64,000 nt of DNA from NCBI GenBank assembly GCA_965238005.1, contig OZ250165.1, positions 4,000,001-4,064,000 on the forward strand, in the 5' to 3' direction. This document shows, piece by piece, positions 48,964 to 57,886 of the stretch. The position numbers and the translations under genes are program-made. Within the stretch, counting starts at the first letter, position 1; every line of letters begins with the position of its first letter. The notes under the pieces are model-generated. The model did not search any database, was not told the DNA's origin, and saw only the letters and a program-made list of their open reading frames with translations. The stretch comes from Longimicrobiales bacterium (lineage in GTDB: Bacteria; Gemmatimonadota; Gemmatimonadetes; Longimicrobiales; Gaopeijiaceae).

Positions 48964-49386
48964 ATGAGCCGGTCCCTCAACAAGGTCATGCTCATCGGCA
49001 ACGTCGGAAGCGATCCTGAGATCCGTGCCACTTCGTCGGGTGGTCGCGTCGCGAAGGTGTCCCTGGCCACCAACCGGCAGTGGAAGGACGGCTCCGGACA
49101 ACAGCAGGAGAAGACCGAGTGGCACCGGCTCACCTTCTTCGGTCGGCTCGTCGACATCGTGGAGCAGTGGGTGAAGAAGGGGGATCGCCTCTACGTGGAG
49201 GGCCGCATCGAGTACTCGCAGACCGAGAAGGACGGCCAAACGCGATATTGGACCGACATCGTCGTCGTGGAGATGGTGATGTTGGGATCTACCGGGGCGG
49301 GAGGAGGAGGATTCGAAGGCGCCCCACCTCCGAGTCCAACGCCGTCCACACCGATCTCGGAGCCTGACGACGACTTGCCGTTCTAA
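48964..49386 (+). CDS. ssb: Single-stranded DNA-binding protein
   Basis: LNKVMLIGNVG.DPE, TEWHR, KGDRLYVEG, C-terminal DDDLPF; AAGGAG RBS. Confidence 0.97.
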   Translation: MSRSLNKVMLIGNVGSDPEIRATSSGGRVAKVSLATNRQWKDGSGQQQEKTEWHRLTFFGRLVDIVEQWVKKGDRLYVEGRIEYSQTEKDGQTRYWTDIVVVEMVMLGSTGAGGGGFEGAPPPSPTPSTPISEPDDDLPF

Positions 49387-49733
49387 GCGTCCAGCGCCTC
49401 CCGCAGATCACTCTCCCAAAGACCCAGAAACTGAGCCTCGTATTGGGCGGGGTTGCGGGCGTAGTCTTCCGCCCAAGCGTCGAAGGGTGGAAGCGCCAGA
49501 CGGCGCGAGACCCCGGCCGTGGCTAGGTGAACCATACGCTCATACGTAGGCTCGCCCTCCCCTCCCTCTAGGCGATGGGCTTCTTCGGCCAGCAGATATA
49601 TCTCGTCGGGTGACAGCAGGAGGAGGTGCTCGGCGACCTGAGCCGAGCAATACTCCAGGTACTTCGCCCGCAAGACCGAGTCCGTCTCGGTATCCTGTCC
49701 GTGGGGGGGGGTCTTGGGATCGGCGTCACTCAC
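49383..49733 (-). CDS. Hypothetical protein, 'domain A' only
   Basis: GGGAGG RBS, GTG start; LRAKYLEYCSAQ and LPPFDAWAEDY motifs shared with 50647-51246 and 52769-53494. Confidence 0.75.
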   Translation of the reverse strand: MSDADPKTPPHGQDTETDSVLRAKYLEYCSAQVAEHLLLLSPDEIYLLAEEAHRLEGGEGEPTYERMVHLATAGVSRRLALPPFDAWAEDYARNPAQYEAQFLGLWESDLREALDA

Positions 49734-49853
49734 GCCCGGCCTCCCGAATGCCTCTCAGGCCGGCAGCGCGTACCGCCCTTCGGCGCGCAAATGCAGGCCC
49801 ATCTTACTGTTACGTTCTAGCTGGGGCACCGGGGAGAGTCAACCCCTAGGGAA

Positions 49854-50076
49854 CCTCTCCACAAGTCTGGTGGGCCTCGCGACCCACGCCTTCGGCGTGG
49901 GTGCCCCGGTCTCGCGCGTGCTCAGGGTAGGAACGACGACGAGTCGTAGCGGGGCTACAGCGAGGAGGAGAGACGGCGCATGAGCCCGCGACCCCCCGCG
50001 CCCGCAGCCATATGGAAGACATCTCCCTACAGTGTGTCGGGTTACGGCGGCATGGCCCGCCAGACTTGTGCAGAGG
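49854..50076. ncRNA. Candidate structured RNA/DNA element bounded by a 23-bp inverted repeat
   Basis: 49854-49876 vs 50054-50076 match at 21/23; several internal hairpins; no family recognised. Confidence 0.35.
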
Positions 50077-50272
50077 CGAGCTGCGTCTGCACCTCGCCTG
50101 TGTTCTGGCTCTGGCTCCGCTCACGCAGGTGGCGATAGATCGACCGGCGGGTGAGCCCGTATAGCACGACCCGGCTCAGGAAGTCCGGATCTGTCCTCTG
50201 AACCTCTTCAGCCTGCTCGGCGATATCGCGAGGGAGTCGGACGTTGAGTTGAACGGAGCAGGTTTCCCACAT
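50042..50272 (-). CDS. Small ribbon-helix-helix-like protein (76 aa)
   Basis: GGAGAGG RBS; SVQLNVRLPRDIAEQAEEV...FLSRVVLYGL strand-helix-helix pattern; own promoter upstream. Confidence 0.6.
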   Translation of the reverse strand: MWETCSVQLNVRLPRDIAEQAEEVQRTDPDFLSRVVLYGLTRRSIYRHLRERSQSQNTGEVQTQLASAQVWRAMPP

Positions 50273-50392
50273 GCGCGTGCCTCTCCCTACCTTGATTGTT
50301 GAAATTTCTCGAAATATTGACAGGGATCGGATGACCCCACTGTAAAACCCACATGCATTCCGGGAGGGCGAATCTTGCCTCGAGGCGAACCC

Positions 50393-50421
50393 AGTATACT
50401 GGTGAATTTCTGGGGGCGCAA
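50393..50421 (-). promoter_or_regulatory. Sigma70-type promoter of the RHH-like gene
   Basis: TTGCGC-17 bp-TATACT; the -10 box lies inside the perfect palindrome CCAGTATACTGG (50391-50402). Confidence 0.6.
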
Positions 50422-50646
50422 GCCTTTTTTCAAATTGTCGTGCGCCCAACTAGATCTTGTAACTTGTTGTCATACAACGACTTATGAATACACAGGTTTG
50501 GGCAAAACCAACTGTTCCCCTCTGTTCCGTGACACGGCTGTTTCCTGATTCTCCTGTTTGGAAAACCAGCAACGATGGGGACTTACAGAGTTCACGTGAG
50601 CAGCAAACGGCTTCTGGACTGAAGTCGATTTTTTACAAAACAAGGA

Positions 50647-51246
50647 CTACAGCAGGATCGATCGCAGGAAGGCCGTCAGGGTGGCCGAGGTGAAGGAGAG
50701 AAAGCGGTCGCGGAGGTCCTGGAGCTCCTCCTCACAGAAGATATCGCCTGTTCGCAAGTGGGCCTCGGCGGCGTCACGATGGAAGCGAATGTACCCTCGC
50801 CAGAGATCCTCGTCCCGGTAGAGTTCGAGAGAAGCGTGCCAGCGATCCCCTCCGTGCTCCACCTCCCTGAGCTCCACCGTGACCGGCTCTGACGGTTCGC
50901 CGGCATGGGGGTACGCTACGCCCGCCTTCAGATGCGCGAGGCGATGGGTCTCGTAATCCGCCAACCAGACTTCGAACGAAGGCAGTGGAAGCAGCTCGCG
51001 ACAGAAGCGATGGAGAGTAGCCATCGGATCCTTCGACTCGTGCATCCCGTGGCTGACAGCCCACTCTCTGGCCTGCCGATAGAGCGGGCGTACGCCCTCC
51101 CGTGGCACGAGCTCCAGGAGGCCGGTCGCCTGGCGACTGCAGTACTCTCGGTACTGCCGTCTCAGAGCCGGCGCTGTCGGAGGCCCCACTGTGACCGTGC
51201 GGAGCCGGGTCTTCACGCCCTCAGCCCGGTCGAGGGGAATCGACAC
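50647..51246 (-). CDS. Hypothetical protein, 'domain A - domain B'
   Basis: LRRQYREYCSRQ...LPSFEVWLADY, then WRGYIRF...RTGDIFCE. Confidence 0.75.
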   Translation of the reverse strand: MSIPLDRAEGVKTRLRTVTVGPPTAPALRRQYREYCSRQATGLLELVPREGVRPLYRQAREWAVSHGMHESKDPMATLHRFCRELLPLPSFEVWLADYETHRLAHLKAGVAYPHAGEPSEPVTVELREVEHGGDRWHASLELYRDEDLWRGYIRFHRDAAEAHLRTGDIFCEEELQDLRDRFLSFTSATLTAFLRSILL

Positions 51247-51264
51247 GGGTCGTCGGCCCCTGCC

Positions 51265-51368
51265 CTAGTGTCCCGTTACCAAAGTGTCTCGGCCAGTCGA
51301 GGGCACGGTGCATCCGTGGGCGCCCCGACCCTCTTGGTGGCTCGCGAACTTCGGAAACGGAACACTAG
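51265..51368. mobile_element. MITE-like element, 104 bp including CTAG at both ends
   Basis: Ends CTAGTGTCCCGTTACCAAAGT and ACTTCGGAAACGGAACACTAG are inverted repeats (18/21); second partial copy at 57887. Confidence 0.65.
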
Positions 51369-52276
51369 TGCACTGTCCCGCCGCCGGCGACGGCGGCATG
51401 GGTGCGGAGCGGCACCGACTTAAGGCGACGCTCGCGAACGGGGAGCCGGGCCAGAGTCTCACGAGATCCGAAGGTGGCCAGGTGATGCTCGACAGCCTTG
51501 AAACGACCGGGCTCGAAGCGCGCCAGGAGCCGACCTAGGCCCCGCCGGATGGTCTGAAGCTCCTCACGGGCCTCGACCAAGGTCACCGGCAGGTCGAGGC
51601 GAACATGATAATGTACCGAGCCGCCCTCGTGGACCTCGCTGACGCGCAGCACTTCACGCTGGGGAAACGCCTCGAGGACCGCTGCCTCAAAGATGGCATC
51701 CGGCTCCGGTGACGGAGCGCGGAAGACCAGCGCATTGGCGTCGTAGTCCAGATAGGCTCGGGTGATCCGGTGCTCGCCCACGACGATGCGAACGGAGGTC
51801 CGTTCGTGGAAGTCCAGGTCTCGACAGATGTCACGGAAGCCGATCCGGAGGATCGTGGACCGGGTCAACGGACCGTATCCCATTCTGCCGAGGAGACCCA
51901 AAGCCATCTGGAAACAGTAGGCCCCGAGACGACCTCCATGCTCGTCGGCCTCGGCGCCGGCACGGTCTCTGATGAGGCGGTTCACATGCTCGAGCGTCGG
52001 CTCGTACACCCAGTCCAAAACGACCAGCTCCGAGCTGAGGTCCAGCATCTTCACCGTGGAGCTCCCCAGGTCCAGCACTTCCGCCGAAGACGCGAAGCGC
52101 CCTTCGAGCACCAGCGCCAGACCGATATCCTGAATCCTCCCACCCGGAAGATCGATCTCGTGGAGATCTCGGTACTGGACGACGGCCCGGGTGAGCGGAA
52201 GCTCACAGATTCCGGGCACGTCGGCCATCGCCTCCGGCCGCGCCTCGGACTGAAGCGAGAGAGTCGTCGCGTTCAT
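51365..52276 (-). CDS. Hypothetical protein (303 aa)
   Basis: GAGGAG RBS before ATG; natural amino-acid composition; no family recognised. Confidence 0.7.
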   Translation of the reverse strand: MNATTLSLQSEARPEAMADVPGICELPLTRAVVQYRDLHEIDLPGGRIQDIGLALVLEGRFASSAEVLDLGSSTVKMLDLSSELVVLDWVYEPTLEHVNRLIRDRAGAEADEHGGRLGAYCFQMALGLLGRMGYGPLTRSTILRIGFRDICRDLDFHERTSVRIVVGEHRITRAYLDYDANALVFRAPSPEPDAIFEAAVLEAFPQREVLRVSEVHEGGSVHYHVRLDLPVTLVEAREELQTIRRGLGRLLARFEPGRFKAVEHHLATFGSRETLARLPVRERRLKSVPLRTHAAVAGGGTVH

Positions 52277-52397
52277 CGTGTCTCCTCTGACGTGAAACGC
52301 CCCCAGCACCGGCAAGCCGGCTCACGGGGGCGATTCCGCGAGTCTCGGACAAACAACGCCCTTGACACTCGTTCGACGATCCCTTTACTTTTCTCGC

Positions 52398-52476
52398 AGT
52401 GAACGAGGAAAAGCGGGTCGCCAACCCGTGTCTTCCAGCGAGAGTCCAGGTGCCAACCTGGACTCTCGCTTTTTTT
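52398..52476 (+). ncRNA. Candidate sRNA 1 (~80 nt)
   Basis: TTGACA(52362)-18-TACTTT promoter; two hairpins with GCCA-containing loops; perfect 15-bp stem plus T6 terminator. Confidence 0.5.
52437..52476 (+). terminator. Intrinsic terminator
   Basis: AGCGAGAGTCCAGGT-GCCA-ACCTGGACTCTCGCT-TTTTTT. Confidence 0.8.
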
Positions 52477-52522
52477 CTGGGTATGTCCCGCCCGATCGGC
52501 ACCACATCGTGGCTGACCGGGC

Positions 52523-52618
52523 AAAAAAACCCGGTATTCTCGCCGGGCTTCCTATGCGCTCCCAACAGCCACTATCGACCGTGGGATGCGGCCTTTTGGG
52601 GGCTTCTCCTGCCCCAAC
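52523..52618 (-). ncRNA. Candidate sRNA 2 (~95 nt)
   Basis: TTGCCA(52654)-18-TATCGT promoter with extended -10 TG; hairpin with AGGAGAA loop; CCCGG/CCGGG stem plus T7 terminator. Confidence 0.45.
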
Positions 52619-52768
52619 GGTCTCACGATAACAATATGTTTACCATCCTGGCAAGACGTTTCTTTCGGCGGCCCCGACGCCGCCAATCGTTTTCCTTGCC
52701 CCCGCTGACGCCTTCGGACATCTTGAGGTCGATCATGCCGCCCACGGTCGCCGGCGGTTCCCGCGGCC

Positions 52769-53494
52769 GTGCCCTATGCACCTCGTCCCACTGCAGAATT
52801 GGCCGAACACGCCCTCATCGACCGCGCTCGCCAGCGCTCTCTCGGGTTTCTCCAGTGGGAAGGCCAGAAGTGGTCTTGCTTCCTGATCACCTTCCAGGGA
52901 CGGGACCACCAATGGCACGGTTACCTCTCCTTCCGCCCCAGGGACAGCGAGGGCGACGTAGACGAGGTCCGCACGGCGGACATCTTCATGGAAGCTTCCG
53001 AGTCGGAGATCGACCAAAAGGCGAGGGGGCTCGGGCAACCCCTACTGAGAGCGCTGTTCTCCTCCGCCCTCCATACCCAGCAGAGGGACGAGGTGGCCTC
53101 GCCCAGGCTGCGCAGGTGGTTCCGCAATCTGCTTTCGGAGAACTCCCAGGAGATAGCGGCTGCCGCCCGAGACTGCCTCGACGACCCGTCCGGCCAGGCG
53201 GACGTGGCGGAGCTGCGGTCACTGTATGCCTCGTACAGGCTGGATCAGGTCTGCCATTTCATTGCGCTTCTCAGGCCCGATGACTTCGAGTCGGCTGTGG
53301 ATCGGATCCTCGAGGGACAGCCTGTGGACTTCGGAGCGAAGGACCGGCTCCAACTCGCCATGATGGTGGTGGAGTACATCGAGGCTCTGATACCCATGCC
53401 GCCTTTCGAAGTCTGGACCGTCGATTTCCTGGCCAATCGGGAGGAGTATCTCCTCTACGCCCACACCCTCCATCGTGAGGGGAGACTTCCCTGA
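52769..53494 (+). CDS. Hypothetical protein, 'domain B - domain A'
   Basis: WHGYLSF...RTADIFME, then LRSLYASYRLDQ...MPPFEVWTVDF; start uncertain. Confidence 0.75.
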   Translation: MPYAPRPTAELAEHALIDRARQRSLGFLQWEGQKWSCFLITFQGRDHQWHGYLSFRPRDSEGDVDEVRTADIFMEASESEIDQKARGLGQPLLRALFSSALHTQQRDEVASPRLRRWFRNLLSENSQEIAAAARDCLDDPSGQADVAELRSLYASYRLDQVCHFIALLRPDDFESAVDRILEGQPVDFGAKDRLQLAMMVVEYIEALIPMPPFEVWTVDFLANREEYLLYAHTLHREGRLP

Positions 53495-53560: not shown

Positions 53561-53755
53561 TTGGAAGTAACCATTCAGGACAACGAGAGCCTCGAGCGAG
53601 CGCTCCGTCGGTTTAAGCGTAAAGTGCAGCGATCGGGGCTCTACTCGGAACTCCGCAAGCGCCGCTTCTATGAGAAGCCGAGCGCCCAGCGGAAGCGGAA
53701 GCGCGAGGCCGCCATCCGCCGGGAGCGCAGGCGTCAGAGGCGCGGCCGGCGGTAG
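53561..53755 (+). CDS. rpsU: 30S ribosomal protein S21
   Basis: [14 protein letters not shown]...[15 protein letters not shown] start. Confidence 0.95.
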
Positions 53756-55754: not shown

Positions 55755-56612
55755 CTATAGATCTACGTCATCCCCCGACAGCTGGAGCTTGAACCTCCTC
55801 GCTTGACGCGTCACCCACCTCCGCCACGACGCGGGGGGCGGGGAAAGTTCCTCGCCCCGCTCCAAGCGATCGAGGATCCCTTCCAGCTCCTGCTGGACTT
55901 CTTCTCTGCGCTTCCGCGAATAGTGGCCTGTGATACGCACCACTCCGAGCGCCACCGCTCCACCCGCGGCGATCGCGACAGACCATGCGGCAGCCGCGGG
56001 AACCACGAAGACCGATCCCAGGAGAGCTGCCACACCGAAGCTCATTCCCGCACCCGCTCCCAGCCCGCCCATGACCGCGCCGGACGTGTAGTCGCCTCGG
56101 ACGCCCGGATCCACGTCAATCTGCACCAGCGTAGAGCCGTCGTCGCCCTCGTCGAGGCGCACCTCGATCTCCTTGGCAGAAGCCCAGTAGACCGTCTGCG
56201 ACATGGAGGCGCCGGCGCGGGCGAAGTTCGAGATCCAGTCTACGGCGGGCCGGTAAAGGAGAACATCGGACCCCTGCCGGACCGGCTGAAGCAGGTGTCC
56301 GGCCACGAGGAACTCGTCGATGATGAGCCGAAGGCGCTCTTTCCCGCCGGGCACGACGCGCGAAACCTTCACGGTGGCAGACCCGAACCAGCGGGCGATC
56401 ACGCCTTGGGGATCCTCGACACTCCGGATCTCCGTGAGCGCCCGCCGCACGTGGGCATCGGGCAGTCCCACCTCACGAGCGATTCGGAACAGCTCCGCCT
56501 CGTCGAGACCGCCCTCACCCCCATCCGGATCCGAAGTAGCGAGCTCCGATGCACGCTTGATCACGGCCTCGAACTCCCGTCGCGTCAGGCTCCTGCCCTT
56601 CGCCTCGGCCAT
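55755..56612 (-). CDS. Hypothetical membrane protein (two C-terminal TM helices)
   Basis: VIKRASEL...EL..IAREVGL N-terminal helical motif, 2 TM segments; start at MAEAKG. Confidence 0.65.
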   Translation of the reverse strand: MAEAKGRSLTRREFEAVIKRASELATSDPDGGEGGLDEAELFRIAREVGLPDAHVRRALTEIRSVEDPQGVIARWFGSATVKVSRVVPGGKERLRLIIDEFLVAGHLLQPVRQGSDVLLYRPAVDWISNFARAGASMSQTVYWASAKEIEVRLDEGDDGSTLVQIDVDPGVRGDYTSGAVMGGLGAGAGMSFGVAALLGSVFVVPAAAAWSVAIAAGGAVALGVVRITGHYSRKRREEVQQELEGILDRLERGEELSPPPASWRRWVTRQARRFKLQLSGDDVDL

Positions 56613-56680
56613 GGTCACGCCGAGCCCACGTTCGCGTCGAGTCCGCCCACCCGCCGTACCCCGTCCATGCCCGCGGTACC

Positions 56681-57886
56681 CTACGGGATCTCGACGATCA
56701 CGGCCCCGCCCTGCCCACCCCCGATGCACGCGGACCCGAGACCGTAGCGGCCTCCCCGCCGGCGCAGCTCATGGAGAACGTGAATCGTGATGCGGGCGCC
56801 GGACGCGGCCAACGGGTGGGTGATGGCGATGGCCCCGCCATTCACGTTGGTTTTCTCGGGATCCAGGCGGAGCTCCTTCTCCACGGACTTGTACTGCGGG
56901 GCGAAAGCCTCGTTGACCTCCACGATGTCCATGTCCTCGAGGGTCAGGCCCGCCTTCTCCAGCGCCATACGGGCCGCCGGCGCCGGGCCGATGCCCATCA
57001 CGCGGGGCTCCACCCCCACGAAGCCCCAGGACACGATGCGCCCCAGCGGCTCAACGCCGTTCTGCTCGGCCCATTCGGCCGACGCCACCACAGCGCTGGC
57101 CGACCCGTCACCGATGCCGCTGGCGTTCCCCGCCGTCACCAGCCCGTCTTCCTTGAAGTACGGGCGGAGTGCACCCAGACCCTCCACCGTGGTGTCCGGC
57201 CGTATGTGCTCGTCGTATGCGAACTCGGTCTCGCCCTTCCGGGACTCGATCGTGACAGGCACGATCTCCGCCTCGAAGCGACCCTCGTCCCAAGCGGCCT
57301 TGGCCCGCTGCTGGCTGTTGAAGGCGACTTTGTCGACATCTTCACGCGTGACCTCGTAGCGCCCCGCCAACTCCTCCGCCGTCTGGGCCATGGTCAGATC
57401 GCAGTTCGTGTCCAGGAGCGACTCCCAGAGCAGATCCTCGAAGGCGCCGCCGGCAGGTCCGAGCCGAAGGTCGCCCCAACGGACTCCCCGCAGAACGTGC
57501 GGCGCCTGGCTCATGGACTCGGTGCCCCCGCAGAGTGTCACGTCGGCGCCACCCAGCAGGATCTCCTTGGCACCCTGGACGATGGCCTCGAAGCCGGAGC
57601 CGCACAGCCGGTTGACCGTGACGGCCGGCTTCTCCTCGGGGACGCCCGAGCGGAGGGCGACGTGGCGCGAAAGGTAGATGGCGTCCGCCGAAGTCTGCAG
57701 CGCGTTGCCAAAGAAAGTGTGGTCGACCTGATCAGCCGTGATGCCTGCCGCCTCGATGGCGGCCTTGCTCGAGAACACACCCAGATCGGTGGCAGTGAAG
57801 CCCTTCAGGCTTCCCCCGAAAGTCCCGAAGGCGGTCCTTTTTCCCGAAAGGATCACGATGTCCTTCGACTGCCCCTGCGTGCCCAT
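56681..57886 (-). CDS. Acetyl-CoA C-acyltransferase (thiolase)
   Basis: NRLCGSG, TAGNASG, NEAF, GGAIAITHPLAASG, CIGGGQG. Confidence 0.93.
   Translation of the reverse strand: MGTQGQSKDIVILSGKRTAFGTFGGSLKGFTATDLGVFSSKAAIEAAGITADQVDHTFFGNALQTSADAIYLSRHVALRSGVPEEKPAVTVNRLCGSGFEAIVQGAKEILLGGADVTLCGGTESMSQAPHVLRGVRWGDLRLGPAGGAFEDLLWESLLDTNCDLTMAQTAEELAGRYEVTREDVDKVAFNSQQRAKAAWDEGRFEAEIVPVTIESRKGETEFAYDEHIRPDTTVEGLGALRPYFKEDGLVTAGNASGIGDGSASAVVASAEWAEQNGVEPLGRIVSWGFVGVEPRVMGIGPAPAARMALEKAGLTLEDMDIVEVNEAFAPQYKSVEKELRLDPEKTNVNGGAIAITHPLAASGARITIHVLHELRRRGGRYGLGSACIGGGQGGAVIVEIP

Follow-up and report, generated by a model that had tools for sequence, protein, structure and literature searches.

What are the three hypothetical proteins encoded between ssb and rpsU in a Longimicrobiales bacterium, and how are they related to one another? 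The locus lies in a stretch of 64,000 nucleotides, here termed the window, which comprises positions 4,000,001 to 4,064,000 of contig OZ250165.1 (G000:C1:4000001-4064000), a single contig of 4.84 Mb. Five genes fill the interval between ssb (48964-49386, plus strand) and rpsU (53561-53755, plus strand), which encodes ribosomal protein S21. An earlier note on this DNA had proposed that three of the five products are paralogs built from two unrecognised domains, A and B, with the architectures A, A-B and B-A. A and B are real homologous modules, and the same two domains are fused in both orders. They constitute two undescribed domain families, with no sequence or clear fold relative in the libraries searched.

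The three open reading frames (ORFs) and the motifs quoted for them in the earlier note are all present. A-only (49383-49733, minus strand) encodes 116 amino acids with an isoelectric point (pI) of 4.4 and consists of the helical domain A alone, detected by the domain A hidden Markov model (HMM) at E 2.2e-28. The A-B fusion (50647-51246, minus strand) encodes 199 amino acids, and the domain HMMs place A at ORF positions 28-117 and B at 123-204. The B-A fusion (52769-53494, plus strand) is translated as an ORF of 241 amino acids; the start lies about 10 residues later in most homologues. A-only, B-only and the whole B-A protein are acidic (pI 4.4-5.1, with B-A at 5.05), and with the separate domains of B-A counted the range is 4.4-5.9.

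By BLASTP, with E values for single comparisons, A-only matches A-B at 2e-5 and B-A at 4e-6. A-B and B-A are joined by two separate matches in swapped order, with E values of 7e-5 for the A part and 1e-4 for the B part. Alignment of the whole-family profiles with hhalign (40 rows of B-A, 36 rows of A-B) recovers domain B at 97% probability and E 1.1e-10. With the families cut into domains and eight A-only and five B-only sequences added, the three A-A comparisons reach 98.0-98.7% probability (E 3.5e-16 to 2.7e-13) and the three B-B comparisons 95.8-98.4% (E 6.7e-15 to 6.8e-9). Five A-versus-B alignments, which served as controls, stay at or below 8.2% probability with E values of at least 0.004. 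A-B and B-A are therefore permuted paralogs, with the two domains in opposite order, each significant at the profile level against negative controls. The same swap is seen at larger scale, as proteins of about 200 amino acids are matched in two stretches, in swapped order, by the B-A profile in a search of 1.84 billion representative sequences.

The number of copies in the genome is small. The whole genome, represented by 68,095 six-frame ORFs of 40 amino acids or more, was scanned with combined A and B HMMs. Exactly three ORFs bear A, and all are in the cluster (A-only, A-B and B-A). Three bear B, namely A-B, B-A and a stand-alone B-only gene of 101 amino acids, found at G000:C1:565867-566172 (locus L036, 5868-6173), 3.5 Mb from the cluster. 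This B-only gene follows a MoxR-DUF58-TgpA (transglutaminase) group and precedes a Macro-domain gene, and its orthologue in genome G116 is likewise flanked by TgpA and Macro genes.

Searches for known families gave consistent negatives. Pfam shows nothing significant for the five cluster proteins (best E 0.087, far short of the cut-offs) and likewise nothing significant for 23 orthologous small proteins. NCBIfam and PADLOC return zero families for the five proteins, and PHROGs no match under E 0.08. Profile searches of Protein Data Bank (PDB) sequences with B-A, A-B, A-only, B-only and the two other cluster proteins give none under E 0.07. In the ESM Atlas, B-A finds solely unnamed Gemmatimonadota clusters. 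Full-text searches of the literature, judged by titles and abstracts, brought up nothing relevant. That the earlier note recognised neither domain agrees with all of these searches.

AlphaFold2 models of the two fusions present the domains in a similar form. The B-A model (predicted local distance difference test, pLDDT, 67.7; predicted template modelling score, pTM, 0.41) has B at 21-107 and A at 146-230. The A-B model (pLDDT 77.1, pTM 0.43) has helices at 25-105 followed by a beta-meander and two helices at 122-197. In both, B (about 85 amino acids) is predicted as a beta-meander of three to four strands followed by two helices, A (about 90 amino acids) as a bundle of four to five helices, and the linker as disordered. 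Domain B has structural look-alikes in the PARP-type WGR domain and in small alpha/beta proteins, among them AcrF1; none is a clear fold match.

The families are confined to one phylum as far as seen. Of 2209 candidates for the B-A protein, 754 are homologues at E <= 0.01, and the best 120 of these are 60-97% identical. A-B has 47 homologues among 324 candidates. The B-only profile has 460 matches among 3122 candidates, and all names shown are of Gemmatimonadota. Among the 1.84 billion representatives the B-A profile detects just 123 proteins at E <= 1e-3. Every named homologue is from Gemmatimonadota, as expected from the suggestion that the module is lineage-specific. Several odd forms were set aside. 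A repetitive protein of 2284 amino acids and forms of 324-377 amino acids in the representative search are of low complexity and probably chimeric, frameshifted or long-linker variants rather than informative fusions. P0224, of 214 amino acids, with a Tim44-like part and the C-terminal half of A, most likely stems from a chimera or a frameshift in gene prediction and is no true architecture. One contig of 5.3 kb (L119, JAHEKL010000196.1) displays the typical orf303/B-A/rpsU order in a metagenome-assembled genome labelled Gammaproteobacteria, and is probably mis-binned.

In an evenly drawn sample of 151 genomes from the phylum, the two domains differ in range. Domain A occurs in 26, with 15/16 in the window's family, f1 (the window's genome excluded), 6/6 in the sister family f7, 1/1 each in f2 and f6, 1/71 in f4 and 1/31 in f5. 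Domain B occurs in 89, with 16/16 in f1, 62/71 in f4, 6/6 in f7, 2/2 in f8, 0/31 in f5 and 0/13 in f10. Because of this distribution, B is the older and wider family of the two. B is mostly found alone, as a gene of about 90-100 amino acids, and each sampled f1 genome carries one such gene. Where B seems to be fused to long proteins (ORFs of 365-752 amino acids), the extra length is an artefact of reading from stop to stop in high-GC DNA; the true genes are of the usual size, about 90-100 amino acids. Full-length B-A is found in 4 of the 151 genomes.

Two further B-only subfamilies with stable neighbourhoods of their own are seen in f4 (loci L038 and L040, of genomes G042 and G056, and L042-L044, L047 and L049). 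One lies between an M50 peptidase gene, itself next to rho, and the gene of a SpoIIM/RDD membrane protein. The other is near a gene of futalosine-type menaquinone synthesis (VitK2_biosynth), with a response-regulator/HD-domain gene beside VitK2_biosynth in three of five loci (L042, L043 and L049).

The paralogs are old and separately maintained. A tree of the B domain was built from 10 of the 40 B-A rows, 12 of the 36 A-B rows and all 28 B-only rows, and each architecture forms a clade of its own: B of B-A (support 99/99), B of A-B (99/94), B-only of f1 (91/83) and B-only of f7 (99/99). It is on these separate clades that the age and divergence of the copies, already supposed in the earlier note, are founded. 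Support for joining the two fused forms is weak (90/72) and comes with a long-branch warning.

Gene order in relatives shows which genes travel together. A scan of species representatives yielded 119 stretches with a B-A relative, the best 80 of which were analysed. In 80/80 loci rpsU comes next after B-A, in the same orientation and at a median gap of 97 nt, and orf303, the gene of an orphan protein, is divergent from B-A in 80/80. In 56 loci the upstream sequence extends over 4.5 kb or more, and of these a small gene termed RHH-like (after the ribbon-helix-helix proteins) and A-only are each found in all 56, ssb in 53 and A-B in 43. In 4 of the 80 loci A-B appears as two ORFs; these overlapping fragments look like frameshifts or insertions and not like ancestral unfused genes. 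Most of the 80 loci also hold a conserved ORF of 324 amino acids (55755-56729 in the window, minus strand), which has no Pfam match and lies beside 3-hydroxybutyryl-CoA dehydrogenase and thiolase genes.

In the sister family f7 the RHH-like, A and B genes are adjacent on one strand in five of six genomes, and the A stop and B start abut or overlap; in the sixth, B is 2.2 kb away. These are the separate neighbouring genes that the Rosetta-stone argument calls for. Of the 24 A-only loci examined, 22 have the RHH-like gene directly upstream; it was not found at the G133 and G087 loci. The RHH-like/A pair, of which A-only is the downstream partner, is seen in three chromosomal contexts: at ssb (f1 and f2), after Ku-LigD (G049) and beside an SDR gene (G100).

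The slot between ssb and rpsU is kept across genera, with one locus per genome, and is filled to different degrees within f1. It holds only the RHH-like/A pair in six genomes (G143, G124, G141, G079, G080 and G117); orf303, the RHH-like gene and A in G130; these three genes and A-B in four (G123, G132, G064 and G071); and all five genes in the window, G113 and G116. In G027, of family f2, B-A, orf303, the RHH-like gene and A are present and A-B is absent. The RHH-like gene is tightly linked to A, A to B (in f7 and in the fusions) and orf303 to A-B and B-A. Inheritance looks vertical and nested; it looks neither mobile nor like that of toxin-antitoxin genes. The suggestion that the genes are housekeeping-like rather than mobile cargo agrees with their chromosomal, syntenic and non-mobile setting. 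The earlier note had also named three outcomes that would speak against it, and the opposite was found in each case: profile alignments are significant, no characterised family is recovered and the genes are co-located in other genomes.

The two genes interleaved with the paralogs are both real. The RHH-like gene (50042-50272, minus strand) encodes 76 amino acids in its best reading, with an ATG preceded by a GGGAGAGG box that resembles a ribosome-binding site, and the protein has a pI of 8.0. Its label, taken over from the earlier note, comes from a sequence pattern (VQLNVRLPRDIAEQAEEV...) and no profile confirms it: a Pfam hmmscan of six orthologues at E <= 0.5 finds no RHH family, and a profile from an alignment of eight orthologues finds, among PDB sequences, an unrelated nucleoprotein at best (E 1.4). 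The protein is thus at most putatively of this class. orf303 (51365-52276, minus strand) encodes 303 amino acids from a start chosen by an alignment of nine orthologues, which are 44-61% identical. It is directly upstream of A-B and divergent from B-A, and its top ESM Atlas score of 0.77 is uninformative.

In most of the family, the DNA that precedes the RHH-like gene has a low GC content, and in the window this stretch (50393-50518, minus strand) displays three elements. There is a GGAACAGnTGAnTT box at 50505-50518, an inverted repeat of about 27 bp at 50460-50484 and a weak promoter-like TTGCGC-17-TATACT at 50421-50393, which was read from the sequence and missed by a consensus scan. When 14 genomes of this family are aligned, 13 have the box and the inverted repeat in recognisable form. 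The strict palindrome pattern is nearly unique, with two occurrences in the 4.84 Mb of the genome. The idea of a wider regulon was rejected, as looser GTAACT...AGTTAC palindromes elsewhere sit in mobile-element contexts and are unrelated. These AT-rich sites (G000:C1:660682, 831029, 2727955 and 853248; loci L082-L085) lie among ArdC anti-restriction genes (two paralogous regions), VirB8 and an AIPR abortive-infection gene, contexts that indicate integrated conjugative elements in this genome.

Part of the intergenic DNA described as structured in the earlier note proved to be dispersed repeat, and Rfam recognises no RNA family in the intergenic DNA (one match, at E 0.68, is below the gathering threshold). 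A repeat of about 100 nt at 51264-51364 consists of two halves and has more than 100 blastn matches across the genome; many of the other copies hold about 80 nt more between the halves. A second repeat, of about 155 nt, at 49843-49997 has about 20 matches. Both look like elements of the miniature inverted-repeat transposable element or repetitive extragenic palindromic type. These two repeat families widen the orf303/A-B and RHH-like/A gaps of the window. Between orf303 and A-B there are 118 nt here, taken up by the repeat of about 100 nt, and in relatives 20, 18 or 14 nt or a 1-nt overlap.

Contigs from metatranscriptome runs labelled as RNA (four runs, three studies; 90-99% identical) cover parts of every cluster gene and of rpsU, one of 821 nt spanning 52523-53318. 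Three contigs from three such runs lie over the RHH-like gene and end at 50354-50376. The contigs pile up and break with loose ends exactly at the two dispersed repeats. A perfect 15-bp stem with a 4-nt loop and a run of seven T residues is found at 52437-52470 (plus strand), in the region between the divergent orf303 and B-A genes, some 300 nt before B-A begins. It could be the end of a small RNA or a leader terminator. Two short contigs from the RNA-labelled run X3 lie at 52432-52534. A long hairpin leader upstream of B-A as a general feature was rejected, since the spacing of orf303 and B-A, taken between HMM starts, ranges from 113 to 753 nt over the 80 loci.

These observations are tentatively explained by a chromosomal module of regulatory partners, confined to Gemmatimonadota as far as seen, a reading to which a probability of about 0.4 is given. 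The ancestral unit would have been an A gene preceded by a small RHH-like gene. In the sister family f7 a B gene abutting A would have extended this to an operon of three genes. The single-chain A-B, behind a new gene, orf303, would have arisen by duplication and fusion in the window's family, and B-A, placed ahead of rpsU, in the same way in a sublineage. A and B would be physical partners, and the fusions hard-wired versions of the pair. The small basic protein would be the DNA-binding member and might regulate its own gene through the inverted repeat upstream. The acidic A and B could modulate the small protein, or a shared target, by protein-protein contact, and orf303 may be a further partner of the fused forms. 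The system would serve housekeeping control and be neither a mobile nor an addiction element. A regulatory role is plausible. A partnership of A with B is suggested by the way their separate genes abut in f7 and by their fusion, in either order, in the window's family.

Several points weigh against this explanation. In f4, B is present in 62 of 71 genomes but A in one; B is without A in most of the phylum, which implies a role for B that is independent of A. The assignment of the small protein to the RHH class comes from its sequence pattern, with no Pfam or PDB relative, and the palindrome stands some 85 nt ahead of the suggested start site, an unusual distance for a simple repressor site. 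The AlphaFold2 models of the fusions show good domains but no confident packing of A on B (pTM 0.41-0.43). The RNA-labelled contigs give weak support for expression and are no proof of transcription, because DNA can occur in such libraries. Lastly, the 80 B-A loci are kin and not independent, the flanking core genes are conserved too, and the long synteny may partly be inertia. The counts therefore demonstrate stable vertical inheritance and not independent selection events. A complex prediction for the f7 pair of G100 (A 36-141 with B 15-103; alignments of 24 and 28 rows), run with no controls, scored 0.00 twice and supports neither side.

A bolder form of the partner model is rather doubtful. 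In it, A and B would be new folds or families forming a dedicated heterodimeric switch and, with a divergent RHH-type binder and orf303, a phylum-specific circuit wired to S21 and translation and to SSB and DNA metabolism. The whole would serve housekeeping control and lack a counterpart outside Gemmatimonadota.

The first of the rivals is close to the mechanism of the earlier note, which had A-A and B-B contacts building heteromers. Here like would pair with like to form hetero-oligomers, and A-only would titrate or cap the fused forms. Three A and three B copies do coexist in one genome, each architecture is an old and separately conserved clade and so not redundant, and the low pTM of the fusion models fits domains without mutual packing. 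However, like-with-like contact leaves the abutting separate A and B genes of f7 and both fusion orders unexplained, and six f1 genomes have the RHH-like/A pair without any fused form, which implies that A-only has a role of its own. The model is unsupported as the note stated it, and appears unlikely; gene order points instead to partnership of A with B, the more likely kind of contact on genomic evidence.

The position of the cluster among core genes offers another explanation, in which the proteins are accessory factors of core machinery. The acidic B-A might be a chaperone or regulator of the very basic S21, or A might act with SSB or in DNA repair. The constant placement of rpsU downstream of B-A at the median gap noted above favours this, as do the acidity of B-A and its unusual conservation, with 60-97% identity for its best 120 homologues and conservation up to the last residue; the B-A alignment has 59 invariant columns, the last residues among them. 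A-only, in addition, abuts ssb in f1 and follows Ku-LigD in G049. Yet rpsU is at the same place in genomes without B-A, the RHH-A-B genes of f7 adjoin neither ssb nor rpsU, and B-only genes have other, unrelated stable neighbourhoods. Adjacency among relatives may also be inherited without functional linkage. An accessory role of this kind is considered improbable.

A tripartite toxin-antitoxin or defence-like cassette, with an RHH regulator or antitoxin and two small proteins, one of them toxic, is a very remote prospect, since there is no PADLOC, Pfam, NCBIfam or PHROGs match, the cluster is a single locus per genome with a vertical, nested distribution at a fixed chromosomal slot and is not patchy, mobile or multi-copy as such systems are, B occurs alone, with neither A nor an RHH-like gene, in the 62 f4 genomes, and conservation is far above that usual for such cassettes.

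The Gemmatimonadota abound in soil and water, and their genetics has hardly been studied. On the regulatory-partner model this locus, with its single operator-like repeat and its four or five small proteins, would offer a concrete entry point to phylum-specific regulation. The conservation is striking and the evolutionary pattern clean, B-A being among the most conserved lineage-specific proteins met in these searches. The occurrence of unfused, A-B and B-A forms in one lineage represents a natural experiment in which partner proteins would become single chains. Newness applies to the domain families and not to the mode of action; even if the function proves trivial, two new domain families are added for the databases.

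Two known kinds of system invite comparison. Small operons headed by RHH genes (CopG/Arc/MetJ-type) include tripartite toxin-antitoxin systems such as omega-epsilon-zeta. The cluster resembles these in having a short gene, with a pattern like a beta-strand followed by two helices, upstream of small genes and preceded by a conserved inverted repeat. It differs in that no RHH profile, toxin family or antitoxin family is matched, in being single-copy, vertical and syntenic, and in that B is also found alone across most of the phylum. In Rosetta-stone pairs, two partner proteins have a gene each in some genomes and form a single fused protein in others. A and B follow this pattern, as separate abutting genes in f7 and as fused genes in the window's family. 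Unlike the usual pairs, they belong to no known family and are putative partners, and a single genome has both fusion orders together with A and B as genes of their own.

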